A stretch of DNA of 64,000 bases from a virus (IMGVR_UViG_3300028584_001240); one strand, 5' to 3'. Counted from the stretch's first letter, positions 410 to 61,311 are shown. Program-made: numbers and translations. The notes: a model not told the origin generated them from the letters alone.

Positions 410-970
410 CTATATCCTAACCATTGATAATAGATCCAGCTTATCATTTAAATCAATGTTTTTTGTATCAATTTCTAAATTTTTTAATTCTTTATCAAGT
501 AATTTACTTACATGAATTATTAAATCAAGACGCTCACTTGAAGCTCTATCCATATAAATATTGAGTGTATGCTGAAACTTATCAAAAACTATTTTTCTAG
601 TGGTTTTATCCATGAAAATATTCATTTCTATAAGTGGACAATAGTGTCTAATTTGCTCTCTATCAAGAAAATCCATACATTTTAAACCTAATGCTATTTC
701 GTCTTTTAAAATAGCTCCATCAAATTGTAAGACATCTACAACATTATTACCGTAACTACAACTGACATTCGCTTTTAAAGTGGTATCATTTTCATCAAAA
801 GAAAACCGAATAATCAAACCATTACTCATTGACTGTGAAGCATTTATAAGTCGATAAGTGACAGAATAACAATGAGGCGACAAAATATTTTTATGTTCTT
901 TGAATTTACCTGTAATCGTGATGTTAAAGTGGTAAAAAAAGTGATTAATCAATCGTTCATAATCTGTCAT
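410..970 (-). CDS. hypothetical protein, C-terminal LxxMxxI-motif group
   Basis: 186 aa ORF ending LDLLSMVRI*. Confidence 0.75.
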   Translation of the reverse strand: MTDYERLINHFFYHFNITITGKFKEHKNILSPHCYSVTYRLINASQSMSNGLIIRFSFDENDTTLKANVSCSYGNNVVDVLQFDGAILKDEIALGLKCMDFLDREQIRHYCPLIEMNIFMDKTTRKIVFDKFQHTLNIYMDRASSERLDLIIHVSKLLDKELKNLEIDTKNIDLNDKLDLLSMVRI

Positions 971-990
971 TTTAAAAATCCCTGTATGAT

Positions 991-1014
991 AAAAAAGAGG
1001 CCGAAGCCTCTTTT
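991..1014. terminator. intrinsic terminator hairpin (cUUCGg loop on minus strand)
   Basis: aaaaaagaggccgaagcctctttt; U-tract on both strands. Confidence 0.8.
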
Positions 1015-1030
1015 AATTATTACCTGTTGA

Positions 1031-2296
1031 TTAGAAGTTACCATAAACGGCATGGAATTCATCTTCTGAAAGAATAGTCACTCCTTGTCTTTGAGCATCT
1101 TGCATTTTAGTAGTAGATGTATTCTTATCCTCTACAATCAGATAATCAGTCGTTCCACTAACTGTTTTCTGAACTTTTGCACCAATACGCTGTAACAAGC
1201 TTTCAATATCGGATCTAGTATTGCCATTTTTATAATTTCTAACAAATTTACCAGTAATCACTACGTTTTTACCATTCAAATTCATTGAGAGATTAGATGG
1301 AAGAATGTTTTTCAAGTCTTTCAAAATATCAGAAAAGTCTTTTTTGTGAGTCGTTTCCATCGTTGTCACAATTGACTCTGGAATTTTTGATGGATTAGCG
1401 ACTGCTGCATCAAGCCATTCCAAATCTTTAATTTCAAGTTTAGAAATCAAAAAGTCTTCGGGAACAAATTTAGCGTAGTTTGCAAAATCCTTAATAATGA
1501 AATCTTTAAATTTCACCACATTGCTCACGTTTTGCAAAAAATTAAGCTTTTCATTGTTGGTCATGGTCACAACATCTTTCCATTCATCATCCAATGAGAC
1601 TTTCATAATGCGATCACGCAATGATGCCAAGTTACTTTCTTTTGGCAGCACATGCTCAAGATTTCCCTTAACGTTGTAAACACACAACGCATCTTCCAAA
1701 CGACGCGGTGAAATTTTGTATTGCATTTCCTTATCAAGTGCGTTCCACCACTCTACAAAAGGCGTAGCGATGGCACCATGCTTGGCTTTCATGTAAGGAC
1801 GATCAATCTTATAAGGTACATCAATTTGAACTTGGAAACGGTCAAGCTGTGCTGGGTCAATTTGTTCAACGTCATAACCACCAGCATCTTCGGAGAATGG
1901 GTTGATAGCGGCCCAAATAACTTTGAGATTATTAAACTTACGTCCGTTAATAGATTTGAATTGAATAAGCTCCATTACAGCGTTTCGAACTTTTGCCGGT
2001 GCTCGGTTAAATTCATCGAAGAATATTGCCTGAACATCATCATCAGCAAAACGAGCTGGACGGATAAGCTCAATAACTTCCATACCATCTTTTCGCGTGA
2101 CTGCTTTTGGAACGCCCACAAAGTCAACCCATGCGTCCATTGTAGCTGCCGAAAAGTAAGCCCAATTATCTTCACCGAAGGTTTCAGAAAAGACTTCTTT
2201 AATAATGGCAGTTTTACCAACACCGTGACGGCCAGACAGCAAAACGTTGAAACCATTTGATGCATAAAGCTTCAATAAACCTGTGTCTAAAATCAT
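1031..2296 (-). CDS. MoxR/AAA_5-like AAA+ ATPase with C-terminal BRCT domain
   Basis: Walker A GRHGVGKT, Walker B IFFDEFNR, sensor AAINP, DPAQLDRF; C-terminal GKNVVITG...GAKVQKTVSGTTDYLIV...GVTILSEDEF is LigA/RFC-type BRCT. Confidence 0.85.
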   Translation of the reverse strand: MILDTGLLKLYASNGFNVLLSGRHGVGKTAIIKEVFSETFGEDNWAYFSAATMDAWVDFVGVPKAVTRKDGMEVIELIRPARFADDDVQAIFFDEFNRAPAKVRNAVMELIQFKSINGRKFNNLKVIWAAINPFSEDAGGYDVEQIDPAQLDRFQVQIDVPYKIDRPYMKAKHGAIATPFVEWWNALDKEMQYKISPRRLEDALCVYNVKGNLEHVLPKESNLASLRDRIMKVSLDDEWKDVVTMTNNEKLNFLQNVSNVVKFKDFIIKDFANYAKFVPEDFLISKLEIKDLEWLDAAVANPSKIPESIVTTMETTHKKDFSDILKDLKNILPSNLSMNLNGKNVVITGKFVRNYKNGNTRSDIESLLQRIGAKVQKTVSGTTDYLIVEDKNTSTTKMQDAQRQGVTILSEDEFHAVYGNF

Positions 2297-4988: not shown

Positions 4989-5828
4989 TTACTGTATTTT
5001 AATCATTTCTTGAATCAAAAGAAAATCTTTCAACTCTGACGCTGATGATATTGGTAATTTTTTTATTTTTAATAAACTAAATATAATATCTAGAATATCT
5101 TGATTAGACGTTTCTAAAAATTCATTAATCGTTAATGATAGAGTCTGACCGGCCAATACTATAATCACATGTTCTTCATAAATCCTGATGTCCAAAAAGT
5201 AATAAGTCCTTTCATCATCAACTTCACCATAAAAATTAACTAATTTGCTTCTTACCATAATAGTTCTTTCATTAAATTCAAAAGTAAATACTGATAGATC
5301 TATTGTATCTGAAATAGGTGACATTCCACGATTTCTAATCAAATTATAAACGCTTTGATTGTATTCTAACAATTCGTCTATTTTTTTTAATTTTATAAAA
5401 ATGTTATTATCAATAAGACATGAAAGTTGACAGTCTTCATTCAAATAATAAGATTTCATATTATTAAGATCATGTAAATTGATTTCTAAATAAAATCTTT
5501 TATTCGTTGCACGAAAAGGAAATATAACGTGATCTGACCATAACGTTAAGATGATGCTGTTTTTTGAAGTAAGTTTTAAACTTATAACTATTTCAATATC
5601 ATCTTTTTGATAAAAATTTATATCTTTCTTCAGTGTTTCAAGAATATCATAAAGAGCTGTAATAGTGATTTCTGAAAAATCCAGTCGGGTGTTAACTTTT
5701 CTAAATTCTTTAAGAACTTCATCAAATACAGGCTGGCATAAATCATATAGAGTTGTTGTCTTTCTATATTGAATAATGCCGAACATTGTGTCATTAAAAG
5801 CTAAATTGTCATTATACTTATCGACCAT
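4989..5828 (-). CDS. hypothetical protein, C-terminal motif group
   Basis: 279 aa ending FLLIQEMIKIQ*. Confidence 0.75.
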   Translation of the reverse strand: MVDKYNDNLAFNDTMFGIIQYRKTTTLYDLCQPVFDEVLKEFRKVNTRLDFSEITITALYDILETLKKDINFYQKDDIEIVISLKLTSKNSIILTLWSDHVIFPFRATNKRFYLEINLHDLNNMKSYYLNEDCQLSCLIDNNIFIKLKKIDELLEYNQSVYNLIRNRGMSPISDTIDLSVFTFEFNERTIMVRSKLVNFYGEVDDERTYYFLDIRIYEEHVIIVLAGQTLSLTINEFLETSNQDILDIIFSLLKIKKLPISSASELKDFLLIQEMIKIQ

Positions 5829-6719: not shown

Positions 6720-7307
6720 TTAAATAGTTTTCATCTCATTTAAAGCAACGTGTTTATCAAAATTATCAATCAAATCTTGAACGCTTTCAGCCGTGCTCGA
6801 TACTTCATCAGCAAAGACTTTAAAACAGAAGAGTTCAAACAACACTTGATCATTACTAATGATGTCTCTAACTTTGTAAACTTTCTTTGTCATGTCTTTG
6901 TAAGCCATCAAAAAGCTGATAACACTATGATCATTTTCAATAAATTCTAAAAGTGTACTGACACGAGTAACGAAAGCAAGTCGTTTTCTGAGATAAAAGA
7001 CAGCGGCTCGTTCTTGAGCGGTGTTAAATTTTTCATCAAAAATAGAATGAAACCAAGTTTTTTCCAAGTCTTTATAGTTGATAATAATCTTAGGTTGTTT
7101 CGTAGGAAGATCAAACGAGAATTTAGCTTCAATAAAATTTTTTGAACCATCTTTATTATTTACAACAAAATTCAAAGTGTTTGTGTTTTCACGAAAAAAT
7201 ACTTTAACTGCTTCAAGTTTTAATGTTTGATTGACATTATCAATAACGTTACGAAACTGCTCAATCGTATACATGGGAGTTTCTTTATAGCCTTCAATTT
7301 CAATCAT
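6720..7307 (-). CDS. hypothetical protein, C-terminal motif group
   Basis: ATG 7307 with SD AGGAG; ends HVALNEMKTI*. Confidence 0.75.
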   Translation of the reverse strand: MIEIEGYKETPMYTIEQFRNVIDNVNQTLKLEAVKVFFRENTNTLNFVVNNKDGSKNFIEAKFSFDLPTKQPKIIINYKDLEKTWFHSIFDEKFNTAQERAAVFYLRKRLAFVTRVSTLLEFIENDHSVISFLMAYKDMTKKVYKVRDIISNDQVLFELFCFKVFADEVSSTAESVQDLIDNFDKHVALNEMKTI

Positions 7308-7588
7308 AAACGATGCTCCTATTAAATTATCCTTAATGATAACATAATTTAAAAATAAAAGCAAAAGTAATGTGAACTATACTAACACGGATTTTTGTAC
7401 GATTTCCAAAATCTATAGCGAATCTCTTACAAAATAATAGGATTTAATGAAGTTTACTTAAGAATAGATAAACGGTATGCTGTAATTGTGTTAAGTTAGT
7501 CTTTAAGTTAACATATTTTTGTATCCTTAAACCTCTAAAAAGACCATCGAAAGATGGTCTTTTACGTACTTCTCGATAAAGTAAATAA

Positions 7589-8344
7589 TCAAACAGTTAA
7601 CTTAGACTTTCGTTTTTCAACAAACAAATGTTCAATCGTTGTCAACGGAACTATTTCTGATTTTTCAATTTTTTGTCCGATATAAATAGCTTGGTAATCA
7701 CCCAGTATGGCATTTTCAGCTTTAATAGTAATTTTATTAAGCTTAAAATCATGTTCAAGCAAGAGGTCAAAAACCACCTTGTTAGAAAGCCACTCTTTTA
7801 TTTGTTTTTCATCAGCAAAAGCGAACATCCATTTTCTTTTGTATTCATTATCTAGAAATGGGCCTCTGTGAGCAAAGATTTCCATAAATTTAGGATCTTT
7901 CTCTGGTCCGGGGTGATTGTAGTCTTCCGCATTTAAAAGAATGTTGTAACCTATTCCATCATAAAGACCTTTATGGTTAGATGTCTCAATTCGATATAGG
8001 GATACTAACTCATCATTAGTAATAATATTCTGATCAATAAGTTTATCATAAAGAATATTTAAGTTAAGATTGGAAAGGTACTGACAATAGTCACTGTCAG
8101 GGTTGTCATCTTCATAGTAGTGGTCAAATTCAATATCTATATCACCTTTTACGAACAAAGGACCATTCGCAATATTTAACGATTCATACATGGTTTCTAA
8201 CTTGGAATTAATATACATCAAACCCAGTGTTTCACTATTTTTAGTTGAGTTTAAAAGAATTTTAAATTGAAGAAAAGGCCACTCACTTACGGCTTCATCT
8301 GGATTGTTGTCTTTGAAGTGTTGTACGAATTCATTACGTGTCAT
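7589..8344 (-). CDS. hypothetical phage-type protein (YRIE..G.Y..HP.P..D..F.F motif), basic C-terminal tail
   Basis: 251 aa; ends EKRKSKLTV*. Confidence 0.65.
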   Translation of the reverse strand: MTRNEFVQHFKDNNPDEAVSEWPFLQFKILLNSTKNSETLGLMYINSKLETMYESLNIANGPLFVKGDIDIEFDHYYEDDNPDSDYCQYLSNLNLNILYDKLIDQNIITNDELVSLYRIETSNHKGLYDGIGYNILLNAEDYNHPGPEKDPKFMEIFAHRGPFLDNEYKRKWMFAFADEKQIKEWLSNKVVFDLLLEHDFKLNKITIKAENAILGDYQAIYIGQKIEKSEIVPLTTIEHLFVEKRKSKLTV

Positions 8345-8445
8345 AGCATTACTGTTCGTTGTTATATTTTAATATTATAACATGACTAAAAAAAAAATAA
8401 AAAAAAGAGCACCGAAATGCTATTTTTTTTAAAGTTACTTTTATT

Positions 8446-9027
8446 TCAAACTGGTTTGCCAGAAGTTTTTATAGTTTCTGCTTTAACAACTTTTTCAGCT
8501 TTTCCTTTTGCTTCTTTCTTTGAAACCGTTTCAGTCGTGCCAGCTTTTCGGAAGTCGGTAGCAGCATTAATCAAATTTGTCATGTTAGCAATTGAAAATC
8601 TACCCGGTTCTTTTGCAATAGCTTTTTGTTCAGTAACTTCTACTTTCTTTTCTATGGGATATGTCTTGGTACACTTTGAATAAAGTTCATCAGCAATACT
8701 CCAACCAACAGCTTCAATAATTACAATAGAGATAGTAGGTGCAACAGCTTGCCCCAAGAATGGAATAAATTTAGAGACTTCTTTTGTGATGACTTTGATA
8801 GGCTGTTTCAACATTGCATTTTTAAAGGATGCTATAGCGACAGCTTTCGCAGCTTCTTCTGTAAGATTTCCACCAAAAACAGCACAAAGACTCATCGTCA
8901 TTGCAGTAATAGTCACAAGATCAGTGGCTACACCTAATCCCGGCACTGGAACAGCGTTTCCTGCTCCTGCTGCTATGGCGTGTGAATGAATAATATAATG
9001 ACACTTTTTCTTTTGTTCTTCGTTCAT
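8446..9027 (-). CDS. DUF697/YcjF-like protein
   Basis: IIHSHAIAAGAGNAVPVPG...KFIPFLGQAV pattern. Confidence 0.6.
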   Translation of the reverse strand: MNEEQKKKCHYIIHSHAIAAGAGNAVPVPGLGVATDLVTITAMTMSLCAVFGGNLTEEAAKAVAIASFKNAMLKQPIKVITKEVSKFIPFLGQAVAPTISIVIIEAVGWSIADELYSKCTKTYPIEKKVEVTEQKAIAKEPGRFSIANMTNLINAATDFRKAGTTETVSKKEAKGKAEKVVKAETIKTSGKPV

Positions 9028-9232
9028 TTTTAAGCTCCAATAAATTTATTAAAATAATAGCATGATAGTTAGATATGTCAAAAATAATAGATGATATTTT
9101 TAACAAAAAAAATATATATATCTATGAGCATACAATAACAGAGATGAATTTAAAAGTCTACCTTTAAAGCAAAAAAGAGTTGAAGTTAAATTTTATTTTT
9201 GCTATTATATTAGATACATTTGGAGAAATATA

Positions 9233-10681
9233 ATGAAAAAAGTAAGAACTCGCGTAGCACCATCACCTACGGGCGATCCACATGTGGGTACCGCCTATAT
9301 TGCCTTGTTTAACTATTGCTTTGCTAAGAAGCATGGTGGTGAGTTCATTCTTCGTATTGAAGACACTGATCAAGTGCGTTCTACCAAAGAATCCGAAGAA
9401 TCTATTTTAAATTCACTTAAATGGTTGGGACTGTCTTGGGATGAAGAACCTTGTCGTCAAAGTGACCGTAAAGCCATTTATCAAGAACATGCTCAAATCC
9501 TTGTAGACAAAGGACATGCTTTCCCATGCTTCTGTGATAGCCATCGCCTTGATAAAATGCGTGAAGATCAAATAGCGGCTGGATTGTCTCCTAAGTATGA
9601 TGGTCACTGCCTTACATTAACATCAGAAGATGTCACTAGTAAGCTAAATGCGGGTGTTTCTCATGTTATCCGTATGAAAGTTCCAACAGAAGGTGTCTGC
9701 ACTGTAAATGATATGTTACGTGGGGCTGTAACCTATGATTGGAAGCAAGTGGATATGCAAGTGCTCATGAAGCAAGATGGTTTACCTACTTATTTCTTGG
9801 CTAACGTTGTGGATGACCACTTGATGGACATTACCCATGTGCTGAAAGGCGAAGAGTGGTTACCGTCTGCACCTAAGATTGTTTTACTGTATCAATACTT
9901 TGGCTGGGAAATGCCTGAGCATTGTCATATGCCTCTGTTGCGTAATATGGACAGAAGTAAATTATCCAAGCGTAAAAATCCTACGTCCATCACCTTTTAT
10001 AAGGACATGGGTTACCTACCAGAAGCTTTATTGAACTATTTGGGTCGTATGGGTTGGTCGATGCCGGATGAAAGAGAAAAGTTTACCTTGCAAGACATGG
10101 TAGATAACTTTGATATACAGCGTGTATCATTGGGTGGCCCTGTTTTCGACGTTAATAAGCTTTCTTGGCTCAATGGTCTATGGTTAAGAGAACTCACGCC
10201 AGATACCTTTAAAGAGAAGCTGTCACAATGGGCATTCAGCACCAATAAGTTTGATAAACTGGTGCCAATGATCCAAAGTCGCGTAGAAAATTTCAGTCAG
10301 GTGAATGATTTGGTGGCCTTCATGTATAGTGGTGATTTGAAATATGATACTTCATTACTAACGCATAAGAAATTAACAGATGCAGAAGTAAAAGATGCCA
10401 TTCAAGTCATGTTATGGGATCTTGAAGCATTGAAGAAATGGAATGAAGTTCAAATATTGGATACATTAAAAGCGTCAGCCGCTAAAATGAATCTAAAATT
10501 GAAAGATATCATGCCATTGGTGTTTGTGATTATTACTGGTTCACTAAATTCTATTTCAGTAATTGATGCAATGAGCTTATTGGGGCCAGACATGACACGT
10601 TATCGTTTCAGATCGGTTCTGAATAAGTTGGGTGGTTTTACTGAACAAGAATTAGATGCATTAATTACTAAATATAAATAA
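9233..10681 (+). CDS. gltX: glutamate--tRNA ligase
   Basis: [16 protein letters not shown] (HIGH), LRIEDTD, KLSKR (KMSKS), full-length anticodon-binding region; resembles gammaproteobacterial GluRS. Confidence 0.97.
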
Positions 10682-10686
10682 GCAGT

Positions 10687-10721
10687 AAAAAGAAAAGCCA
10701 CTCGAGTGGCTTTATCTTTTT
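10687..10721. terminator. bidirectional terminator between convergent genes
   Basis: aaaagccactcgagtggcttt. Confidence 0.75.
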
Positions 10722-10724
10722 ATT

Positions 10725-12317
10725 TTACATTTCTTTTTTATTTAAATAAATGTATTTTGCTATTTCTGCGGGTCTATACTCTAATTTCAATGCACTAAAA
10801 CTGTAGCCTCGTTCATGATTTAAATGAGTTTTCTTATCTAAAGCATAGTCATTGTAACCAAATACCATAGCCTCGCCCGCCGACTGACTTTTTATATTTC
10901 GCCCCTTATAAAATGGAGGGAAATTAGTTAGATCCCTCATTATGCGAAGTTGAATAGCATCAGGAAGTTCGGGATATTCCCCTTTCATGAGAACAAACGT
11001 TTTCGCATCCTTAATAATCTGCTTCATAAAGTGGGTGTCTCTGTGAAAGTCTTGCACAGCATAAATCATATTTATTGAATGTGGATTTGTCATCGAAAGA
11101 TAATCCGAAAGATTATTTGAAATCAATGAAGAAACATCATCCAGAATAACAGTTTGAGTATTTTCTCTGTGTTCAAATTCCTTGATAACTTTATTGATAT
11201 TTAACATCATCAAATTGACTAATGATTGACATAAGTCCCACGATTTTTCTAAAGATGGAAATAATGTTAATATTATTTTCCTTTTGTAGAAGGCTTTTTC
11301 TAAACTGACTTCTGGATTAATTGAAAACACTGATTGATAAGCAATCAACGTATTTACCATTGGAAAAGCCACATCGCAATTGAGGACATGTGAGCGTAAT
11401 GTTTCATCAGCATCATAATCTAAATTATTTAAATAATCATCAATATGAGGTACAGCGGTAGAAAATAATGGATCTGATTTAATTTTGTGTAGAGTATCAA
11501 GCATTAAAAAAGATTCAATATTGTCAACAGACACTAATCCATTATTGGATTTGATACATTTTGATAGTTCATGTAATAGTCTGCCGATTTTATCACCAAA
11601 TAAAATTTTAAAAGCTGTTTCATCACCAATCAACGGATTGATTGGGTCAATGGTATGCGTTATTTTACTATCATTAGTATTCTTCATTAAAAAGTTAAGA
11701 AGGAAAAGATCATCATGTCGATTATGCTGTTTGGCGATGCTAAACAATTTTGCATAAACACTAACATCACCTTTGCCCTCTACATACATCAAGCCTTCTC
11801 CATTTTCAATATATTGATGCCCCATTGAAATCAATGCCTCAGTTTTACCTGATCCGGTCGAACCTGAAATGGTAACTGGATAACTGGTTAACGACCAGTA
11901 TTTAGATTTATTTGAAAATTTATCAGTTATTGACGCAAAATACCTTGGCGAAAAGTCGCCTAATTTAATAGGCGTGTGTGGCTTATCGTCTACTGTCTTA
12001 TAATTTTCTTTCGCTGTTGTATTAGGATTGAAAATAAAAGGAAGTTCTCTATTGAAGAAATCTATGTTCGATAATAAATAATCTTCGTTTTCTCTTATCT
12101 TTTTAGTAGAACTGACATCTTGAATGCTATCACGTTTATTTAATTCTTTTTCAAAAACATTCCAATTGGGATACCCATTAATATTGGCTATATGTTCTTT
12201 AGCGTGACTTAGATTGTTGATGGTTAGTTTGAAAGGCGGTGTATCGGTGTATTCATTTTTTTTGGCTAATTTTAATAAACGTGCAGCCTCACGCTTAGCT
12301 TGATCGAGCTGACTCAT
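10725..12317 (-). CDS. DotL/IcmO/TraD-like coupling-protein ATPase without TM anchor, N-terminal small helical domain
   Basis: Walker A GSTGSGKT, YVEGKGD, DDLFLLNF, LFPSLEKS, Walker B VILDD, AGEA; N-terminus AKREAARL...LSHAKEHIANINGYPNW. Confidence 0.65.
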   Translation of the reverse strand: MSQLDQAKREAARLLKLAKKNEYTDTPPFKLTINNLSHAKEHIANINGYPNWNVFEKELNKRDSIQDVSSTKKIRENEDYLLSNIDFFNRELPFIFNPNTTAKENYKTVDDKPHTPIKLGDFSPRYFASITDKFSNKSKYWSLTSYPVTISGSTGSGKTEALISMGHQYIENGEGLMYVEGKGDVSVYAKLFSIAKQHNRHDDLFLLNFLMKNTNDSKITHTIDPINPLIGDETAFKILFGDKIGRLLHELSKCIKSNNGLVSVDNIESFLMLDTLHKIKSDPLFSTAVPHIDDYLNNLDYDADETLRSHVLNCDVAFPMVNTLIAYQSVFSINPEVSLEKAFYKRKIILTLFPSLEKSWDLCQSLVNLMMLNINKVIKEFEHRENTQTVILDDVSSLISNNLSDYLSMTNPHSINMIYAVQDFHRDTHFMKQIIKDAKTFVLMKGEYPELPDAIQLRIMRDLTNFPPFYKGRNIKSQSAGEAMVFGYNDYALDKKTHLNHERGYSFSALKLEYRPAEIAKYIYLNKKEM

Positions 12318-15087: not shown

Positions 15088-15876
15088 ATGGACAATATTT
15101 TTGAAACAGTTTTTAATATAGAGAATTTATTAAAGTTCCTTGATAAGAATGTCCCTAATTTCTCAAATGAACCTATTGTCGAAAAAGACAGTGAAGGGGT
15201 TGTTGAATATGAATTCTACGACATCAAATCGCCAGCCAGTTTACATCATCCTTTCATGCATTTAAGAGTATATAACAATAGACAAATATATTTCTTAGGA
15301 AGAGATCAAACCGAACTGATTAAAACATTTAATTATTTCAAAACACATGAAATGAAAGAGGCTGATTTATTGTCTATCATTGACATTATTAATAAAACAG
15401 GTGAGAAGTATGGCATCTATAATAAAGATAAAAATAAAATACATGAAAAGAAAATAAAGAAACTATTAAAAAACAGAAACGAAGTAACACCAGAAGTTTT
15501 TTTTAAAACGGTGTATGACATTGTAGGTGTCTGTGGTAAAGGTGCATGGAGTAAACATGGACCAACCTATATCAAAAGACAGTATTTCATATTAGATGAC
15601 TGTAGTTTATTAGAGTGGTATATTATAAACTACCCAATGACTAGTAATCTAAAAGTAATTGTTAACGTTGTGAGACTAGATGATAAATTAATGATTGCTG
15701 TCAAATTTAAAGAATCTGACGAATTAATTATGATGGAAGATATTGAAGAGTTCCAAAAAATAGTGGATGATAAGTTCTTAGCTATTTATTTACCGATGAT
15801 AAAAAAACATCTTGGTAATGACCGCACAACATTTAATCAAGATGACATAACACTATTAAGGATGGTAAAAATATGA
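15088..15876 (+). CDS. hypothetical protein, C-terminal motif group
   Basis: ends DITLLRMVKI*. Confidence 0.75.
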   Translation: MDNIFETVFNIENLLKFLDKNVPNFSNEPIVEKDSEGVVEYEFYDIKSPASLHHPFMHLRVYNNRQIYFLGRDQTELIKTFNYFKTHEMKEADLLSIIDIINKTGEKYGIYNKDKNKIHEKKIKKLLKNRNEVTPEVFFKTVYDIVGVCGKGAWSKHGPTYIKRQYFILDDCSLLEWYIINYPMTSNLKVIVNVVRLDDKLMIAVKFKESDELIMMEDIEEFQKIVDDKFLAIYLPMIKKHLGNDRTTFNQDDITLLRMVKI

Positions 15877-18724: not shown

Positions 18725-18800
<76 letters not shown>

Positions 18801-18812
18801 ATATAAAACTTG

Positions 18813-19145: not shown

Positions 19146-19154
19146 CTCTTAATA

Positions 19155-19230
19155 TGGCTGGCGAAACAGGACTCGAACCTGTGACCCGGTGATTAACAGT
19201 CACCTGCTCTACCAACTGAGCTATTCGCCA
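19155..19230 (-). tRNA. tRNA-Asn(GUU)
   Basis: Cloverleaf, loop CT-GTT-AA, G73, CCA. Confidence 0.95.
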
Positions 19231-19247
19231 ATATAATCTATATATTA

Positions 19248-19499: not shown

Positions 19500-19511
19500 A
19501 AGTACTCCTTC

Positions 19512-43266: not shown

Positions 43267-43303
43267 GATAGTTCTCCTAGTTAGTTTGTTAAATTTTAAG
43301 CAT

Positions 43304-43326
43304 AAAAAAACCGCCGTTAGGCGGTT
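43304..43326 (-). terminator. attenuator terminator in leader of GlyRS-like gene
   Basis: AACCGCC-TAAC-GGCGGTT-TTTTT located between promoter and gene. Confidence 0.8.
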
Positions 43327-43367
43327 CGTGTCATTGTCAAAGGACAAACAGGTATACGCCAAAACCT

Positions 43368-44765: not shown

Positions 44766-46070
44766 ATGATTAAAATTACAGGTGTCACGGATTTAATTAT
44801 GGGTTCATGGGATTATCACCAGACGAAAAAAGACCTGAAAGATAATAATATGGGACTTGAATTGAGTGATTCATATCTTTCTTATCATGGTGCAAAAGCA
44901 GTACTTGGAGCTGTTAGATTTACAACACTAGGTATAGCTTACGGTTATGCTCTAAATACAGGAGCCTTTAATCAATTAGACAGCATAAGTGTAGGGTTAG
45001 TGGCTGCATTTACGGCGGGTCATATAGTTAATGGAATTATTCAATATGCTCCATCCTTACTAAAAGATGAAGCACTTTCATATAAGAGATTTCAAGGTAA
45101 TATTCTAAAAGATAACGAAATTTTTAATAAGATTACCAATCAAACAGAACTATCTGTACACACTTCATATCAATTGTTTATGGTGGGTAATAAGCTGGCT
45201 ACTGGTAATCCATTCGATAAAATAGTGTTTAAAATGAAAGAACAAATATCATTATGGAAAGAGAAATGGAACAATGAACAACTTGATCAATTTAATTTTA
45301 TTTCAAAAGCTGTTTTAAAATTAATAAAGAAATCAGATAGGTTAAGTGATATCCTAACTAAATTTGTTAAAGACAGCCCATTAAAAGTCGAAACTAACAA
45401 AATAATAAAAGTTCATGGAAATATCGAATCAAAAGAAAATGAATATTTCAGATCATACATGGCTGAAAAATACCCAGAAGAACAGAAAGTGAAAAAAAGT
45501 TGTGAAGAAAGGTTAGCAGGACTAAATCAGAAGGCAATATTGTCCGCTTATGATATAATAAGACAGCAAAACGTACAATTGTTTTTTGCTAAAATCGTAA
45601 TGGACTACAATAAGGGTCATATTCATAGTGATCTTATCAAGAAATTCGCGGAACTAAATAATCAAACAAAAATACCAGAAAAAGGTAAAAACACTTATCA
45701 GGAATTTGAACCTTATGCCAATATATCAAGAATGGCAAGAAAAATGATGGATAACAAAAAATTATACCTACCTGATGTAGATGTTAAAAAAATATTAAAA
45801 GACATTAATAAAGAAATGGTCAATGATAATAAAATAAAAATATATTCATTCAATAATATTTTTTATCATACAAAGAAAAAAATAATTAACAAAGAACTTG
45901 AAAAACAAGCACTTGGAAATATACTTAAATCTGATAAAAAGGCTGTCGTCAACGAAATAGAAATTGATAACAATTCATTCAACGAGATTGTAAAAATAAC
46001 AGATAAAAAACTAAATGAAGAGAAAAAGATTGCAGAAAAAATTCAAGAAGCAAAGAAAAACAAAATATAA
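44766..46070 (+). CDS. membrane-associated protein with basic tail
   Basis: Hydrophobic hairpin near aa 43-95; ends EAKKNKI*. Confidence 0.7.
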   Translation: MIKITGVTDLIMGSWDYHQTKKDLKDNNMGLELSDSYLSYHGAKAVLGAVRFTTLGIAYGYALNTGAFNQLDSISVGLVAAFTAGHIVNGIIQYAPSLLKDEALSYKRFQGNILKDNEIFNKITNQTELSVHTSYQLFMVGNKLATGNPFDKIVFKMKEQISLWKEKWNNEQLDQFNFISKAVLKLIKKSDRLSDILTKFVKDSPLKVETNKIIKVHGNIESKENEYFRSYMAEKYPEEQKVKKSCEERLAGLNQKAILSAYDIIRQQNVQLFFAKIVMDYNKGHIHSDLIKKFAELNNQTKIPEKGKNTYQEFEPYANISRMARKMMDNKKLYLPDVDVKKILKDINKEMVNDNKIKIYSFNNIFYHTKKKIINKELEKQALGNILKSDKKAVVNEIEIDNNSFNEIVKITDKKLNEEKKIAEKIQEAKKNKI

Positions 46071-48693: not shown

Positions 48694-49449
48694 CTATTTA
48701 TTAAATAAAACCATATGTGCTAACTTAAGTTGAGCATGAACTAAATCTATATCCAATGGTTTCGGTAATGGACCATAAAATTGTGTGAATATTTCGTCAA
48801 AACTTTCTAATGAATCCATTAATATATAATGTTTTAAGAGTAGGTTTTCGTCTTTGACATTAAAGCCCTGTTGGTAAGTTCTAAACTTAGCATTGTATTT
48901 ATCAACAATGCCATTAAAAAGTCCCCTCTGATTGCCTACAAACAGTTTTCCAACAGGATTATAATCCTTGTCAAAATCATAGCCAATATAGAATTCTGAC
49001 ATCATATATTTAATTTTAAAATAATTATGAAGATGAAATGCTTCATGAATATAGCAAAGTTCAAAGTTGTCATTATAAAACATAATTTTATTTTCAACCG
49101 AATCTTTAAACGATTGTTCATCACCACAGTGGATAAATAAAGTTAAGTCCAGATTTAAAAGAACATGATATTTAAATTGAGACGCAAGTGGACTATCGAG
49201 AATTTTAATAAAATCATCAATTTTTGTATCCACTGTTTTTTGATATACGGAGTCTATAATAGATACATTAGTTTTAGTGTCTTTAAATTCAATAGTAACA
49301 CTGACCCCATCATAAGAAGTCATTACCGTAATATCATCTAATGTAAATACTCTTTTTAGCAAACCTTTATGATTGATTGATTCCAGTCCAATAGCAATCA
49401 TACGTTCTAATTGAGATTTCTCAATATTTTTAACTTTATTTATCATCAT
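48694..49449 (-). CDS. hypothetical protein, C-terminal motif group
   Basis: ends QLKLAHMVLFNK*. Confidence 0.7.
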   Translation of the reverse strand: MMINKVKNIEKSQLERMIAIGLESINHKGLLKRVFTLDDITVMTSYDGVSVTIEFKDTKTNVSIIDSVYQKTVDTKIDDFIKILDSPLASQFKYHVLLNLDLTLFIHCGDEQSFKDSVENKIMFYNDNFELCYIHEAFHLHNYFKIKYMMSEFYIGYDFDKDYNPVGKLFVGNQRGLFNGIVDKYNAKFRTYQQGFNVKDENLLLKHYILMDSLESFDEIFTQFYGPLPKPLDIDLVHAQLKLAHMVLFNK

Positions 49450-50620: not shown

Positions 50621-51367
50621 TTAAATTTTTGTCATGTCATATAAACTTAAAAAGGCTTCTGGATTTTCTTTAAATTTATTATACAAATCAGACCAGTCTT
50701 CTGTGTCAAATAATTCTTGAATATTTTCATCATGAATACTTAAAAAAGACATTTTAGCAAATATTAGGGCTTCTTGTGGGTTCGTAATCTTATAGAACCT
50801 ATTATAATCCTCACTATAAAGGCTTAATGAATTGGTATAATAACGATTACTGCCTCTTGCTGATGAAGGCCCATTACGATAACTATCAGAATATTTAAAC
50901 ACACCATCAATATCGGTTAACACACCATCAAAATTAAATTTTAGTGTAGGTGAAACACTCTCAACAATGTCAGAACGAGTCACTATAAAAGATGAGACTT
51001 CTTTAAAGTTAGCGAAATATGAAGTGAGATCATGTAAATGAAGCAATTCTTTTAAGGTGTCATCATCTTTGTCATTGAATTCAAATTCTATATAATTAAC
51101 TTTTAAGGAATCATCTTTAAACAAAGTAGCTGACAGCTTAAATTTAATAGGATGATCCGCATTAAATGCCCCAAACCCACAATCCAGTATATAAGTAGGT
51201 GTGAACACATACGTTTTATCTTTATCATTCATATGAAAAATTTCATTGTCCTTATTTTCTTTTACATAAGAACAACCATTAAGACCAATTCTTTGTACAA
51301 GTTCGGAAAACGTGGACAATATATCTCGTTCAACTTTATGCTTTGCATCGTCAGTGAATTTAGTCAT
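50621..51367 (-). CDS. hypothetical protein, C-terminal motif group
   Basis: ends FLSLYDMTKI*. Confidence 0.75.
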   Translation of the reverse strand: MTKFTDDAKHKVERDILSTFSELVQRIGLNGCSYVKENKDNEIFHMNDKDKTYVFTPTYILDCGFGAFNADHPIKFKLSATLFKDDSLKVNYIEFEFNDKDDDTLKELLHLHDLTSYFANFKEVSSFIVTRSDIVESVSPTLKFNFDGVLTDIDGVFKYSDSYRNGPSSARGSNRYYTNSLSLYSEDYNRFYKITNPQEALIFAKMSFLSIHDENIQELFDTEDWSDLYNKFKENPEAFLSLYDMTKI

Positions 51368-52236
51368 ATTTTTATCATCTCAAAAGTGGTTAAAGAAACT
51401 TTGTAAAGCTCATAAACCTCAAGATCAGTCAACGAGAATATATCATTAAAGTAATCATTTTCTTCCATGAAAGACATCAACTCTGGAATAGGTTGACCAC
51501 CCAACATAATTAAAACACCCAAATGTTCGGAATTAAAGGTTTCAAAGTCTAATACTCTCCTGAAAACAATTTTACTGATGTATTCATAAAAGGTGGTAAA
51601 CAATTTTTTCTTGATTAACTGCTTGAAGTGGTCATAATGGTCATTGATTTCATCAACAGGAATCGAAACAATAACTTGCATTTTATCGGCTGATTTAGGG
51701 GCTTGGAAATAAAAAATACCATCAATAATGTAATAAGAGAATTTCATAAACTCATTATCAACATTGCCATTGCCATAATTAGACATAATGGTGTAAAAGT
51801 TGTACTGACTTTTGTCGTCAATAAAAATGGCGTTATTAAAAATAACTCGATCAACCAAGTGCGGCGTTTCAAATTCATGAGGAAAGGCTAATGTTTTGGG
51901 TCTACGAAAATTAAGAAAGCCTTTCTGGAAAATACGCACTTTATCTGAGTCAAAGTGTAAATGCTCTTTAAATTCAGTATCCGAAGGGATAATATTGAAT
52001 TCAATCAACGCTTCAAAATAAGCAGTCATCATCTTGTGATGAATTTCAGCAGATACCGAATCAATTTTAAACAAAGCGTTTAATTTGTCAGTGACAAGCT
52101 TTCGAATGTAAAGTGGACTGGCACAAACACGATTGTCCATTAATTTAAATTGAACAGATTCTCCCCAGTGCGTAAGGAATTCATCCGCAGCCAGAAAAGA
52201 TTGCCCATATTTTTTGTAGTAATCGTATAGTTGCAT
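51364..52236 (-). CDS. hypothetical protein, C-terminal motif group
   Basis: ends SLTTFEMIKI*; possible internal copy HLGVLIMLGG. Confidence 0.75.
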   Translation of the reverse strand: MQLYDYYKKYGQSFLAADEFLTHWGESVQFKLMDNRVCASPLYIRKLVTDKLNALFKIDSVSAEIHHKMMTAYFEALIEFNIIPSDTEFKEHLHFDSDKVRIFQKGFLNFRRPKTLAFPHEFETPHLVDRVIFNNAIFIDDKSQYNFYTIMSNYGNGNVDNEFMKFSYYIIDGIFYFQAPKSADKMQVIVSIPVDEINDHYDHFKQLIKKKLFTTFYEYISKIVFRRVLDFETFNSEHLGVLIMLGGQPIPELMSFMEENDYFNDIFSLTDLEVYELYKVSLTTFEMIKI

Positions 52237-53725: not shown

Positions 53726-54628
53726 CTAGATGGTTGCCATAGCATAAATATTCATATGTTCATGGGTCAGTTTTTCACCCTCACCCAAAATAGACAATTC
53801 AATTAACTTTTCAGTAAAACCATGTTTAGGGTGATGAATAATCACAGTATCATAAATAAAATTGAAAATAAAGTTAACATCATATTCCTGATGTTCTTTA
53901 AGTAGGTTGATCTCCTTTAAAACGTTTGAATCCTCATAACTAACAGTCTTGTATTGATAAAGCTGCAAATAAGGATCATAGTGTGTCTCAGCGACAAACC
54001 AGTCACCCGCAAAAGAATCAATCACATAACCACCGGCTGACTCATAATGCGTATAGTCCTGCAGGTTAAACTTACCTTTAACAAATTCTTCTTGGTCTGG
54101 ATCGTCATTAAACATCATTGTAAAGTAAACAAGTCCATCACGAACAATGGCTTTATACTTAAAATTATAGACGTTATCTTCAATTTCAATATTGTTTAAA
54201 ACTTGTTGACCATGTTCTTGGACAAAATTAATATGCACTTTATAATATGATACACTTTTCATAAAATGATTAACTTGGTCATTAATAACAGTGCCTAACT
54301 GGATAGCACAATCATTTGAATAATAAGGTTCGAGAAATTCAACATACATTTTCCAACGCTCTTGTTCAATGCCTTCTGGGGTATAGCTAGTATGCTGACT
54401 AATAAAAAGGTGCTTCACATTAAAACTGTTAACCAAGAGATTATCTCTGAAAACAAAAATCCCCATATGGTTGGGATGTTTATTGCTGTCCATCACAACA
54501 ACAGCATTATCAGATTTATTAATCAAATAGTGCAGATCTTCTGATTTACCCAATAATGAACGTTCATTTTCATAGACGATCTGATGTTTGGAATCAATGG
54601 TTGGGTACAATTCTTTTAAATGAGTCAT
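53726..54628 (-). CDS. hypothetical protein, C-terminal motif group; paralog of 54719-55693
   Basis: QEYDVNFIFNFI; ends HMNIYAMATI*. Confidence 0.75.
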   Translation of the reverse strand: MTHLKELYPTIDSKHQIVYENERSLLGKSEDLHYLINKSDNAVVVMDSNKHPNHMGIFVFRDNLLVNSFNVKHLFISQHTSYTPEGIEQERWKMYVEFLEPYYSNDCAIQLGTVINDQVNHFMKSVSYYKVHINFVQEHGQQVLNNIEIEDNVYNFKYKAIVRDGLVYFTMMFNDDPDQEEFVKGKFNLQDYTHYESAGGYVIDSFAGDWFVAETHYDPYLQLYQYKTVSYEDSNVLKEINLLKEHQEYDVNFIFNFIYDTVIIHHPKHGFTEKLIELSILGEGEKLTHEHMNIYAMATI

Positions 54629-54718: not shown

Positions 54719-55693
54719 TCAAATAACAGTCATTTCATAGACCTTAACATGTTCAAGTGTAACACATTCGTTTTCACCTAAAATGGAAAGTTCCCTAAGT
54801 CTCTCTATGAAATCTTCTTTTGGATAACACAAAAACTCAGAATCAAAAATAAAATTAAATATAAAATTAACATCATATTCCTGTTCATTTATAGTCTTTT
54901 GCTCAACTGATGTTGTCAAAGTATCACCATCTGATATAGTTCGGTGGCAATAAATACTGTAAGCTTTTATGATAGGATCATAACGTGATTCTATAAATAA
55001 TTTATCTGACTTAAATATGTCAATAATCACATCAGATAGAGACTCATAATGTTCATAATCGGACAGTTGAAAATATTTTTTAACAAAAGATTCTTTAGTG
55101 GGTTTTTCTTTAATTAAATTAGTGAAATAAAGAATATTGTCACGAATAATGGCCCTATAAATAAGCTCATTCTTTTCATCAATAATAATAAGCATTTTTC
55201 CTAAGTCATTAATACACTTAGAGTCTATAATACGAATTTCATAAAGATCAACATATTTCATAAAATGCTTAATTTGCCAACTAATATCAGAATTTAAATG
55301 AGTGTAACAATCATTTTGATAGGCTTTTTTCAAGATGTCTATTTCACGACAATGAATGTTTTCAAGAGATGTGTCATCTTCAAATCGTAATGTTGGGTTT
55401 TCGAGTCGAAAACGTATTTCAGCAGCAGTTAGGCGACTGCGACCTGATCCAGAATTTTCTACTAACTCATTGTAGAGTCGTTTAAATGAATTGTACCTTA
55501 GCGAATCAACAGAAACGAGATCAATAAATGTTCTTGTTTTTTGTGGATGTGATCGTTCGTAAACAATAATTGTCGTATCCAATTTACTGACCAGATAGTA
55601 ATTCTGTCCATTTACGCCAATTCGGCAACTATCATCTTCATAAAATGATTCATTAAGATCTATCTTAGGGTACCATGAAGATAATGTTAGCAT
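54719..55693 (-). CDS. hypothetical protein, C-terminal motif group
   Basis: QEYDVNFIFNFI; ends HVKVYEMTVI*. Confidence 0.75.
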   Translation of the reverse strand: MLTLSSWYPKIDLNESFYEDDSCRIGVNGQNYYLVSKLDTTIIVYERSHPQKTRTFIDLVSVDSLRYNSFKRLYNELVENSGSGRSRLTAAEIRFRLENPTLRFEDDTSLENIHCREIDILKKAYQNDCYTHLNSDISWQIKHFMKYVDLYEIRIIDSKCINDLGKMLIIIDEKNELIYRAIIRDNILYFTNLIKEKPTKESFVKKYFQLSDYEHYESLSDVIIDIFKSDKLFIESRYDPIIKAYSIYCHRTISDGDTLTTSVEQKTINEQEYDVNFIFNFIFDSEFLCYPKEDFIERLRELSILGENECVTLEHVKVYEMTVI

Positions 55694-57879: not shown

Positions 57880-58725
57880 TTACATCTTTACCATCTCATG
57901 TATTTTAACAACATCTTGCATTTCCGTTCTTGTAAATGTTTTCAATTCCGTCACAGTCTCCGGCCCAACACCTGTTAAAGAGAACGCTCGATACAAAATC
58001 TTATACACATGTTGTTCCACATATAATTTAAAACGTTCTTCTGTCACAACCCTCCCATCTTCCATTAAAATAAATGGATTACTTTCATCTAATGAGACAA
58101 AAAAAGAATAGTTAATAACAGACTTATCAGTAAGAGATCGACAAGAACACTGCATTCGCATAACAAATCCAGAGCAGGAATTCTCTCGTTCACCCGCATC
58201 AAAATAACCAATACACCCATTGAACATACTAGGTTCATACAGTAAACTAGGTTCCACAGCATAAGTAACTTTGTTATTATTAAAAATGGTATGATCACCA
58301 TTAATATTAAAAGAGTGACTATGGGATGGATTGTCTGTTCGAGTATAACGAATATAAGCGTCTTGCCAATTTAAACCTGTTAAATTGATGTCTTTAAAAG
58401 GTTTTTTGATAACATAAGCATTAGATGCAACATCAGAGATAGAACACATCACCTGAGTAAAGTAGTCAAAATTGATGCCATAATTACAATGCAACGCCAT
58501 CAAACCACTAAACATATTCTCAACACTTGCACCAGCCATTGCCATTGAATAAAACCCTATTCCTGTGATATCAATAAATCTGATCTCTAATGGCTCATTA
58601 GCGTAAGTCAGCTTTTTCAATAAAGCTTGCGAATAGATATAACCATCATCGTTCTCATCCCCACCGAGATCATCTTTGAGAACTTTTAAAACATCATCTA
58701 ATTTTGATTTTTCGTTCAAATGCAT
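57880..58725 (-). CDS. hypothetical protein, C-terminal motif group
   Basis: ends VVKIHEMVKM*. Confidence 0.75.
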   Translation of the reverse strand: MHLNEKSKLDDVLKVLKDDLGGDENDDGYIYSQALLKKLTYANEPLEIRFIDITGIGFYSMAMAGASVENMFSGLMALHCNYGINFDYFTQVMCSISDVASNAYVIKKPFKDINLTGLNWQDAYIRYTRTDNPSHSHSFNINGDHTIFNNNKVTYAVEPSLLYEPSMFNGCIGYFDAGERENSCSGFVMRMQCSCRSLTDKSVINYSFFVSLDESNPFILMEDGRVVTEERFKLYVEQHVYKILYRAFSLTGVGPETVTELKTFTRTEMQDVVKIHEMVKM

Positions 58726-58769
58726 TTAAAACATCCTATTATTTTTAATGAATGGTTTGATATTCACGG

Positions 58770-59546
58770 TTAAATATCAACCATTGCGGTCAATTGTTTA
58801 AATTCAGCAATTTTACTGAAGATCCCTTTAACATTAGCAGGCGTAATATCTTCATGACTATAATCCAATCCTTTAAGCAAAGGCTCAAGCATTGATTCAA
58901 GAATCTTACATGCCAAGATTCGATGATCTTGGTTACGATCAACCACCACATAATTCGTGCCTTTCATACTGGCTGAGCAAATCAAGTCTGCTCCGATCAC
59001 ATAGAAATGAATGTTTCTATGAATGTGAAATTCATCACGGTATGAATTGAAGTGAACTTTCATATGCTCACACAATCCTTCATCTGGAAACTTGACATAA
59101 TCGTCAATAACATAAAAAGATTCGATATGCGACACTGACGTGTAGTAGTTGAAACAATACTGTTTATGTTGCCATGCATAATGAGCCAGAATAGTATCAG
59201 CAATGTCTTGTTCTGATGGTGTAATACACTCAATCAAGTATGCCACTGTTTTTGCAATATAACGAGCTTGTGAGTCATTAAACTTATTCACAGAAGTAAA
59301 GAGATCATCGAAATTTCGACGTGGACAGGGTTGCGTCCGAGATTTATGAATACGAATACCACGATGAGCCATATCATCAGTATGACTGAGCCAGTATTCT
59401 TTTGAGGTTAAATATTTATGTTTCAAGCAATAGACAATATCGCGTTCAGTATAGTCATCTTCAGGTTCGATATCAATACCTGCAGTAGCTACTGAGCAAA
59501 TTTCTTGTTGGATATAGTCTTTACGTTCAGCTTCTGTCATCGACAT
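58770..59546 (-). CDS. hypothetical protein, C-terminal motif group
   Basis: ends FKQLTAMVDI*. Confidence 0.75.
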   Translation of the reverse strand: MSMTEAERKDYIQQEICSVATAGIDIEPEDDYTERDIVYCLKHKYLTSKEYWLSHTDDMAHRGIRIHKSRTQPCPRRNFDDLFTSVNKFNDSQARYIAKTVAYLIECITPSEQDIADTILAHYAWQHKQYCFNYYTSVSHIESFYVIDDYVKFPDEGLCEHMKVHFNSYRDEFHIHRNIHFYVIGADLICSASMKGTNYVVVDRNQDHRILACKILESMLEPLLKGLDYSHEDITPANVKGIFSKIAEFKQLTAMVDI

Positions 59547-59665
59547 AAAATGTCCTCATAATTAAATATGCCTAATTATATCAAATTTCAACCAAAATGA
59601 CAATCGTTTTAATTGACTAATTTAAAATCAATGTAAAAATAGTGATATTTAAAAAGGAGTTTTTC

Positions 59666-60556
59666 ATGAGCCAAATATTATTAAGGGAAGTCAACAAGTA
59701 CAATAACAGTATTGGGTATTTTAGTAAAAATAAAAAGCTTTCTTATTCATCAACAGATATTTACATTGCTTCAAGTGATAAAAACAAACCAATCATATTA
59801 AACTTTGAGGAATGCCGTTCAGCTACTGCATTGTATGGATGCAACGAAAAAATAAAAACAATATATCTTAACATTATTATGCAAGCTATTGAGACAGATA
59901 TGCCTTTTACCATTGTAAATACGTTATTTAATCCATTAGAACTTGAAGAAGCAATACGCTATAAATTATCGACTACAACTTATAAATATAGTATCTATAG
60001 CATAGATAAAGAAGATCTTGAAAATGAAAATATTAATCTATTAACTAAAGAAGCTTCAATGATTGTCAACTATCATAACTATAACTGTCAAGAACATGAA
60101 AAAGGCTTACTACGAGCATCACTTTCTCGTTCATTTGCCAGTTACTTTCAACCTGTTAATCAAAATGATACTAAAAAAACAAAAATAGCCTATGCTCTTA
60201 TGATTATGGCATGTGATGAATCCGATGTTTTTTTCCATCCACAGTTTATCTCAATGGGACGTAGCATCGGGATATACAACTTTTTTTCTAATAATGAGTT
60301 GGATCTCAGCAAACTAGCTAATTCAAGTGCTTCAATATTATTAAATGATTCACAAAACATTTCTAAATACAAAGATACACTGGATGTTTTCCAATTTAAA
60401 CAAGTGAATGAGATTGACTACAATAAAGAATTAAAAGAACAAATAAAAGAGCAAATGAACACTAACTATAAAAACAAACTTAATGAAAATGAAAGTTATA
60501 TTGTCAGAAATAATTCAGATGTTACACGATTAATAGAAATAAAAAAATTCTATTAA
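59666..60556 (+). CDS. hypothetical protein, possibly a degenerate coupling-protein-like P-loop fold
   Basis: ALYG at a P-loop-like position without GKT; ISMGRSIGIYNFFS recalls the QARSLG segment of DotL/TraD; weak. Confidence 0.5.
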   Translation: MSQILLREVNKYNNSIGYFSKNKKLSYSSTDIYIASSDKNKPIILNFEECRSATALYGCNEKIKTIYLNIIMQAIETDMPFTIVNTLFNPLELEEAIRYKLSTTTYKYSIYSIDKEDLENENINLLTKEASMIVNYHNYNCQEHEKGLLRASLSRSFASYFQPVNQNDTKKTKIAYALMIMACDESDVFFHPQFISMGRSIGIYNFFSNNELDLSKLANSSASILLNDSQNISKYKDTLDVFQFKQVNEIDYNKELKEQIKEQMNTNYKNKLNENESYIVRNNSDVTRLIEIKKFY

Positions 60557-61311
60557 TAACTCAATATCTTAATAAGATCAGTATAGCCATTGTCTATAAT
60601 AGTTTTACGTTTAGCCAATGAGTCAATATCAAACTCTAAATCAGGAATCATTCTTTGTATTTTATAAAATGGAAGAAAGTCACCATAGAGTTTGTAAGTA
60701 AGACTAACTGTTTTATTCTTAATGTTGAACACTGCTTCATATAAATAAAAATCAGGTGTATTATCTGAGTTAGTGACGTAGTATGTCTTTCTACTGTGAT
60801 CATATGATGTATAATGATTAGTAATAATATGCCGCTCAATAAAACCATCAACATATTTAAATATCGTGGCAGGTTCTGCATTGTAAGCATCATCATATTG
60901 ATACAAGAAAGGCATTTTTCCATTACCTAACATTAACTCATTCTGTTGAAATAATTTCATACTCACATAAAAAAAATGATTGTGTTCAGATGTCATTCCA
61001 AAATCTGAGAAAAATAAGGTGACTGTTTTATTGTTTTTTGTTCTAATGTAAGTAAATTTAGGGTCGGCTTGAATGTTAAACTTATTAATAAAATCATTGG
61101 CCGTAGTTGTCTTATGATAGCCATCTACACGAACAAATCCTAATTCAGTTAACAAATATAATTGACTAGCAGCAATCATGAAACTATTTTTTGTTCTCAT
61201 AATATATTTTTCAAGCCGTTTTAGTTCATTTCCTTGCTCAAAACCATCACGAGTAAGGGCTTCCTTATCAGATAAAAAGTATTTTACTTCGCCAATAGTT
61301 TCGTAATCCAT
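60553..61311 (-). CDS. hypothetical protein, C-terminal motif group (variant)
   Basis: ends YTDLIKILSY*. Confidence 0.7.
   Translation of the reverse strand: MDYETIGEVKYFLSDKEALTRDGFEQGNELKRLEKYIMRTKNSFMIAASQLYLLTELGFVRVDGYHKTTTANDFINKFNIQADPKFTYIRTKNNKTVTLFFSDFGMTSEHNHFFYVSMKLFQQNELMLGNGKMPFLYQYDDAYNAEPATIFKYVDGFIERHIITNHYTSYDHSRKTYYVTNSDNTPDFYLYEAVFNIKNKTVSLTYKLYGDFLPFYKIQRMIPDLEFDIDSLAKRKTIIDNGYTDLIKILSY

Follow-up and report, generated by a model that had tools for sequence, protein, structure and literature searches.

We report a C-terminal tail, [LIV]-x-x-M-x-x-[IFY]-stop, that is shared by 21 proteins of otherwise dissimilar sequence in a stretch of 64,000 nucleotides of IMGVR_UViG_3300028584_001240, referred to below as the window. 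Carriers of the tail span positions 410–61311 and account for about 30% of the window genes, or about a third. The tail is restricted to this clade, it is selected at the protein level and it is better conserved than the bodies carrying it. The reading that we favor, and to which we give about an even chance, is that a common partner recognizes the tail, which would then act as an interaction handle on many variable bodies; we infer that the partner would be bound in trans.

Occurrence and enrichment of the C-terminal tail

A first-pass annotation of the window had listed 21 C-termini of this type, and all of them are present at the respective genes (minus strand unless marked +, lengths in amino acids (aa), positions counted back from the last residue). 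Met occupies position −4 in LLSMVRI (410–970, 186 aa, stop codon TAG), LNEMKTI (6720–7364, 214 aa), LLRMVKI (15088–15876, +, 262 aa), LLSMYEI (16606–17613, 335 aa), VVSMMRI (17621–18412, 263 aa), IIKMVDF (23039–23683, 214 aa, ending in Phe), LSRMIDI (27722–28495, +, 257 aa), LTLMKIY (33870–34535, 221 aa), IFDMMGY (34537–35418, 293 aa, ending in Tyr), IFDMTCY (35465–36328, 287 aa), LYDMTKI (50621–51367, 248 aa), TFEMIKI (51364–52236, 290 aa, with a stop that overlaps the start of 50621–51367), IYAMATI (53726–54628, 300 aa), VYEMTVI (54719–55693, 324 aa), IHEMVKM (57880–58725, 281 aa, ending in Met) and LTAMVDI (58770–59546, 258 aa). Ile is found at this position in IHQIIKF (26941–27705, +, 254 aa), LTLIKIY (33177–33851, 224 aa) and the variant LIKILSY (60553–61311, 252 aa). 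IQEMIKIQ (4989–5828, 279 aa) has one extra residue after the motif, which places Met at −5, and the variant LAHMVLFNK (48694–49449, 251 aa) has two. In 18 of the 21 carriers the chain ends exactly three residues past position −4.

The excess of Met at −4 noticed in the first-pass annotation is borne out: it occurs in 16 of the 67 open reading frames (ORFs) of at least 100 aa, for which a binomial test against the internal Met frequency of 2.5% gives p = 9e-12. The total gene number, previously put at about 80, is 67–71 ORFs in our count. The full pattern [LIVMF]xxMxx[ILVFYM]-stop fits 15 ORFs, and about half of the 30 occurrences of a stricter pattern across 17,509 protein positions lie at the very end of a protein. 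In syntenic relatives the tail was found in 13 of 44 ORFs. At 41 bacterial control loci from GTDB, Met at −4 occurred in 4/267 and the full motif in 0/267, and the full motif was likewise absent (0/52) from other low-GC contigs with a DotL-like gene. The enrichment thus holds against controls (16/67 vs 4/267), which together with the binomial p value rule out a chance origin of the tail. Once four tandem pairs of paralogues are collapsed, the carriers represent 17 independent families.

Positions −1 and −4 are hydrophobic in 100% of the carriers, −7 in 95%, −9 in 71%, −3 in 67% and −13 in 62%. Acidic residues are most frequent at −5, −11 and −18, and the positional periodicity reaches back to about −13. 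Between −18 and −9 carriers hold 2.14 acidic residues compared to 1.30 in non-carriers (p = 3e-4), and over the last 20 residues carriers are net acidic (−0.76) whereas non-carriers are net basic. A larger sequence module of 30–40 aa, which had been proposed as well, is unsupported because in leave-one-family-out hidden Markov models only the last ~14 residues generalize to unseen families, with scores of 3–6 bits; the 42 upstream residues do not transfer. Nor was the suspected second copy of the tail detected in 51364–52236. The weakest fit to the tail profile is that of 48694–49449, and the tail alignment contains an aromatic column about 40 residues upstream. Searching the tail profile against PDB sequences gave no match.

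Carriers had been described as soluble proteins of 186–335 aa, and indeed none has a hydrophobic, transmembrane (TM) or signal-like segment; they are acidic, with a median isoelectric point of 5.65. It also holds that the tail is absent from window proteins with a Pfam enzyme domain, a TM segment or a signal-like N-terminus. Pfam and PHROGs searches with all carriers returned no more than a weak partial match to T2SSE and a single PHROG without assigned function, and an ESM Atlas look-alike search with two carriers gave no usable match.

Two side observations concern this protein set. The T2SSE match (Pfam, E-value 1.4e-5) belongs to the family of the neighboring carriers 26941 and 27722, in which residues ~140–165 resemble the Asp-box/Walker B region of PilT, GspE and DotB ATPases, without a Walker A motif. 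The family profile matches true T2SSE-like proteins through this PilT/GspE-like segment only, and the confidence of the AlphaFold2 (AF2) model of 27722–28495 is low there; the segment may mimic a host ATPase interface. Furthermore, the window encodes four small proteins with four TM segments each (29994–31640, −; 41876–42364, −), which form one family, three of them in tandem at 32–47% identity. None is tailed.

Selection on the protein sequence

Codons at the conserved tail positions differ between carriers, synonymously as well as non-synonymously, at −7, −1 and the flanks, with six codons in use at −7, and the DNA downstream of the tails is unrelated. A DNA-level cause such as gene conversion, or a terminator or promoter located in the tail, is thereby excluded. 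The constraint therefore acts on the protein, and gene conversion has not occurred recently. We compared the window with orthologues, about 60% identical, on two related contigs, L001 and L005. Identity between carriers and their orthologues is 78% over the last 10 residues and 66.5% over the body. In non-carriers the relation is reversed, with 66% in the last 10 residues and 79.5% in the body. Since carriers also evolve faster overall than non-carriers, the tail is the best-kept part of faster-evolving proteins. In single cases, the tail is kept in the orthologue of 6720–7364 (L001:18882-19469), the last 10 residues of 16606–17613 are identical in L001, and the Ile at −4 of 33177–33851 is Met in L005. 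Distant members of the 26941/27722 family, found among 1.84e9 proteins, retain the tail as well.

Among the best-conserved proteins in the relatives are two without annotation, of 151 and 441 aa (23736–25528, −), at 82–97% identity, carriers averaging 66%. Both lead an operon-like row that also contains carrier 23039 and the PBECR5 gene, and they may have a structural core or hub function.

Relationship between the carrier bodies

The bodies had been regarded as unrelated apart from four tandem pairs. At the sequence level this stands: blastp and phmmer comparisons between the bodies connect only 26941 with 27722 (37% identity), 33177 with 33870 (50%), 34537 with 35465 (40%) and 53726 with 54719 (33%). 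Comparison of family profiles with hhalign, including profiles of 10 and 25 sequences, gave no cross-family signal. A profile of the 26941/27722 family searched against 1.84 billion representatives collected 19 proteins, none of them from another carrier family, and carrier 51364 shows no significant resemblance to the non-carrier 55758 (E 0.018).

At the level of predicted structure the claim is weakened by two AF2 models. Those of 17621–18412 (ma5038e33174d) and 27722–28495 (m67c39f7de724) reach a mean local confidence (pLDDT) of 87.5 and 77 and a global score (pTM) of 0.81 and 0.78, respectively. Both share the same order of elements, namely an N-terminal helix, a four-stranded meander, a helix, a long helix, a further sheet, a helix, a short helix and a terminal helix. 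The latter comprises 15 residues (248–262 and 242–256) and holds the motif in both models. Judging from this order, the carriers may share one hyper-divergent fold. Searches with both models by Foldseek (PDB, BFVD, Atlas) and VIA-align wide yielded nothing above background (best Z 7.2 and 5.2), and the two have different weak PDB neighbors and no PDB or BFVD neighbor in common. In many carriers an amphipathic helix at the N-terminus precedes strand-like segments. Propensity profiles of the Chou-Fasman type are uninformative for comparing carrier architectures, being only 54–62% accurate on the two models.

The tail as a proposed common docking handle

In the reading that we favor, the tail is the end of an amphipathic C-terminal helix of 13–14 residues, first acidic and then hydrophobic, with hydrophobic residues at −13, −10/−9, −7, −4 (Met), −3 and −1 and the stop placed exactly three residues past Met. 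The carriers form a very large group of alpha/beta proteins of 190–335 aa, soluble and acidic, that diversify quickly through tandem duplication. Their bodies drift until sequence similarity is lost while purifying selection holds the tail, most likely because through it many variable bodies plug into one shared partner. With such a handle, one experimental approach could give access to hundreds of uncharacterized proteins, and a giant element would be seen to organize a fast-evolving arsenal of which only the address stays constant. As partner we would consider, in this order, a DotL/TrbC-like ATPase encoded in the window, possibly acting through an adaptor, a hub of the sliding-clamp type and a small protein with tetratricopeptide repeats (TPR).

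Variable bodies combined with a constant C-terminal element are known from the XVIPCD proteins of Xanthomonas, the BID proteins of Bartonella and the poxvirus ankyrin/PRANC proteins, in which this element docks to a coupling protein or a ubiquitin-ligase hub. These elements are folded domains of 60–120 aa that profiles detect, whereas only ~13 residues are shared here. Short C-terminal helices or peptides also load cargo into HK97-type shells, as do the cargo-loading peptides of encapsulins and the C-terminal helix-turn-helix of the P22 scaffolding protein. Their motifs differ from the tail, and neither the window nor the fetched relatives yielded a recognizable gene for a shell, capsid or portal.

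Several points weigh against a handle. No partner was found among the window genes. The tail lies in a confidently predicted helix (block pLDDT ~76–91) of compact models, which is as compatible with packing in cis as with a free handle, and the strong hydrophobicity of this helix suggests burial. Given the common order of elements in the models, the carriers may be one family and the tail its best-conserved core helix. Portability of the tail with Met is not demonstrated in the window, because no recognizable enzyme or membrane protein there bears it. Finally, the DotL-like protein has no TM anchor and is accompanied by no other secretion-system gene in the window.

A possible single hyper-divergent fold

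The strongest competitor, which we consider possible though doubtful, is that all carriers descend from one paralogous fold. The tail would then be its last buried helix, in which Met would pack against a conserved aromatic side chain of the long helix before it; no common receptor would be required, and the constant position of the stop would merely reflect recent common descent. This is consistent with the shared order of elements in two families without sequence similarity, with the frequent N-terminal succession of amphipathic helix and strand-like segments, with the narrow length range (186–335 aa) and with the fairly high pLDDT of the tail helix. The aromatic column of the tail alignment fits it too, and the tandem pairs at 33–50% identity testify to ongoing duplication and fast divergence. 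However, even the deepest profiles fail to connect the families, residues upstream of the tail do not transfer from one family to another, and the weak PDB neighbors of the two models differ. Given the divergence of the bodies, one would also expect Leu or Ile to have replaced a purely structural Met in more than 5 of 21 carriers. Should the carriers nevertheless be one family, it would make up ~30% of the genes in 64 kb of a 1.9 Mb element, an unusual gene-family expansion for a prokaryotic mobile element.

A coupling-protein-like ATPase and a possible translocation signal

The first-pass annotation had mentioned a coupling protein of the DotL type as a possible receptor, and such a protein is encoded at 10725–12317 (−). 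It matches DotL in PDB entry 6sz9 with an E-value of 7e-17; over 63 residues (149–211) it is ~60% identical to the Legionella protein, and its nucleotide-binding domain has the Walker A region of the family. It matches the NCBIfam model TrbC_conju (IncI TrbC) at 3e-10, which is far below the family cut-offs, and its remote homologues carry PF10412, the TrwB domain. We found no TM segment, the highest Kyte-Doolittle mean over 19 residues being 1.09, and hence no N-terminal TM anchor. Judged by its sequence, the protein belongs to the type-IV coupling-protein superfamily as a soluble form with a DotL/TrbC-like P-loop domain, and it is a candidate reader of the tail. It is conserved in the relatives, and homologues with 30–40% identity occur in other low-GC giant contigs.

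In one of these (L047:1-21752, on a 2.23 Mb contig from JGI 3300047323), 10 of 18 proteins next to the DotL-like homologue end in K-x-K-[ILV]. In its general form this Lys-rich tail reads K-x-K-[ILVMF]-stop and follows an L..EL helix; a SAM methyltransferase is among the ten proteins. Weaker Lys-rich ends were found in two further contigs, in one case on a NUDIX enzyme. Over three such contigs 11/52 proteins are concerned, compared to 0/267 in the bacterial controls. In the window a 434 aa protein (44766–46070, +) ends in a Lys-rich tail. Shared C-terminal tails therefore recur in elements with such a homologue, and the Lys-rich class is found on ordinary enzymes. A prophage-like contig of Pseudomonas luteola has the ATPase and no shared tails.

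In the window (7589–12317) the ATPase is encoded close to a T4 Y00F-family protein, and the two are also near neighbors in the P. luteola prophage-like region (L048:5083-11641, GCA_044903105.1), where an SNF2 helicase and an S24 repressor adjoin the pair. This proximity hints at a conserved phage module and a host of pseudomonad type.

Effectors of the Dot/Icm system of Legionella carry a C-terminal signal with acidic residues upstream and hydrophobic residues near the end. An unlikely explanation of the tail is a signal of this kind, read by the DotL/TrbC-like ATPase and routing hundreds of proteins out of the cell or into a particle, with the Lys-rich tails as a second class. Like Dot/Icm signals, the last ~35 residues of the carriers show an acidic block (2.14 vs 1.30 acidic residues at −18 to −9) upstream of the hydrophobic positions, −7, −4 and −1 being hydrophobic in 95–100%. 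The carriers resemble effector sets in being numerous, soluble, acidic and fast-evolving, with hundreds of unrelated bodies, and the P-loop of the ATPase is kept in the relatives and in distant giant elements, in L047 next to the Lys-rich tails. In contrast to the tail, Legionella signals are degenerate and have no fixed motif. The ATPase differs from DotL in being soluble, shorter and without an adaptor-binding tail, and its scores lie far under the family cut-offs; soluble FtsK/TraD-like ATPases can be DNA pumps instead. None of the components of a type IVB apparatus (DotB, DotO, the DotC/D/F/G/H core, DotM, IcmS, IcmW) or of another secretion channel was found in the window, and the replicon looks phage-like, unlike the setting of Dot/Icm. 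The P. luteola contig, which has the ATPase without shared tails, speaks against this explanation as well.

An extension of this idea, which we regard as decidedly speculative, would be a C-terminal address code with at least two classes, the tail with Met and K-x-K-hydrophobic, read by the coupling-like ATPase and routing hundreds of effector-like proteins into a particle or out of the cell. If true, it would represent protein sorting of a scale and kind undescribed for any virus of prokaryotes.

The TPR-like protein (15873–16316, +) is a candidate partner, as it is translationally coupled to carrier 15088, the stop of which overlaps its start codon (ATGA). It scores 27.6 bits with Pfam TPR_2 (cut-off 27) and stays below the cut-offs of the other TPR models. 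The gene is conserved in L001 with the same overlap, and the carrier orthologue (L001:12237-13028) retains the tail. Complex prediction with ATPase, TPR protein and tail gave a score of 0.01 (mark 0.32), which is evidence neither way.

Sliding clamps and other possible receptors

In the T4 family, gp43, gp55 and gp33 have hydrophobic-acidic C-termini that serve as interchangeable handles for the gp45 clamp (PMC2988020). The clamp-binding end of the RB69 DNA polymerase gp43 combines L at −7 with M at −4 and F at −1 behind acidic or polar residues, and thus exactly matches the L(-7), M(-4), aromatic(-1) pattern; for this reason we list a clamp-type hub among the candidate partners. The carriers would then be tethered to DNA-bound clamps of the gp45, PCNA or beta-clamp type, which we think very improbable. 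The tails in the window, too, are short, hydrophobic-acidic and located at the very C-terminal end, a window AAA+ protein is weakly clamp-loader-like (phrog_168, 8e-8), and a T4 Y00F-family gene is present. However, the motif has just three defined positions, and the T4 family uses such ends on three or four replication and transcription proteins, whereas here ~30% of all proteins, without recognizable function, would be tethered to a clamp, which is unprecedented. The T4 ends are flexible linkers, whereas the tail is predicted as a helix of 15 residues. Unlike in the T4 family, no clamp was recognized among the window proteins (Pfam, PHROGs, NCBIfam), and neither the window nor the fetched loci contain a polymerase or sigma-like gene.

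Least probable of all is a degradation or membrane signal, in which the tail would act as a degron at the C-terminus, read by an AAA+ or Tsp-type protease, or as an amphipathic membrane helix like that of MinD. The exact non-polar C-terminal end and the amphipathic helix would suit it, yet the tails have an acidic net charge, the basic residues usual in membrane-targeting helices are missing, and no linked protease gene was found in the window.

The element

The window has a G+C content of 32% and about 70 ORFs that are densely packed on both strands. Its genes are preceded by Shine-Dalgarno sites and many of them by extended −10 promoters (TGnTATAAT), so expression is of the bacterial type. 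The few genes recognizable with Pfam, PHROGs and NCBIfam are phage-like in flavor. They include three aminoacyl-tRNA synthetases (GluRS, CysRS, ArgRS) and a short class-II synthetase-like protein, a PBECR5 nuclease, an R2K ATP-grasp protein, NADAR, a TnpB-like transposase, an AAA+ protein with a BRCT domain and the T4 Y00F-family protein. Orthologues of the carriers are located on contigs of 1,843,594, 1,858,324, 1,859,102 and 1,917,244 bp from several samples, of which the last (L005; JGI 3300034157, Ga0370506_000001) is syntenic with the window. Most genes on these contigs have no Pfam match. INPHARED, queried with a carrier, the PBECR5 protein and 20 kb of DNA, gave no relative or weak domain matches only; scanning IMG/VR with one carrier and its alignment and searching GTDB species genomes with one carrier family gave no match. 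The best identity of GluRS is 62%, to Pseudomonas enzymes. From the giant contigs of the relatives, the searches without relatives and the distant GluRS we conclude that the replicon is a giant phage-like element of a bacterium, almost wholly unannotated. It may represent an undescribed class of giant phage-like replicon, and literature searches found neither the tail nor the element described. To our knowledge the largest reported phage measures about 0.7 Mb, and the element would far exceed every phage known to us.

Seven tRNA genes interleaved with small ORFs form an array at 18725–21332 (−). One of them (20584–20659; labeled Pyl by ARAGORN) has the anticodon CTA of an amber suppressor. TAG is the stop codon of 9 of 71 ORFs, including three carriers, and read-through would therefore change the ends of these three proteins.

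Other genes in the window

The short synthetase-like protein (42511–43362, −; 283 aa) consists of a class-II aminoacyl-tRNA-synthetase core only (tRNA-synt_2b, 2d, 2e) and falls far short of the length of a working GlyRS, HisRS or ProRS. The AAA+-BRCT protein (MoxR/AAA_3-like; 1031–2296, −) stands in one row with carrier 410–970 (−) and a DUF2201_N protein (L052:10689-11999), a putative metallopeptidase/VWA-partner, just beyond the left end of the window. This arrangement resembles MoxR-VWA pairs.

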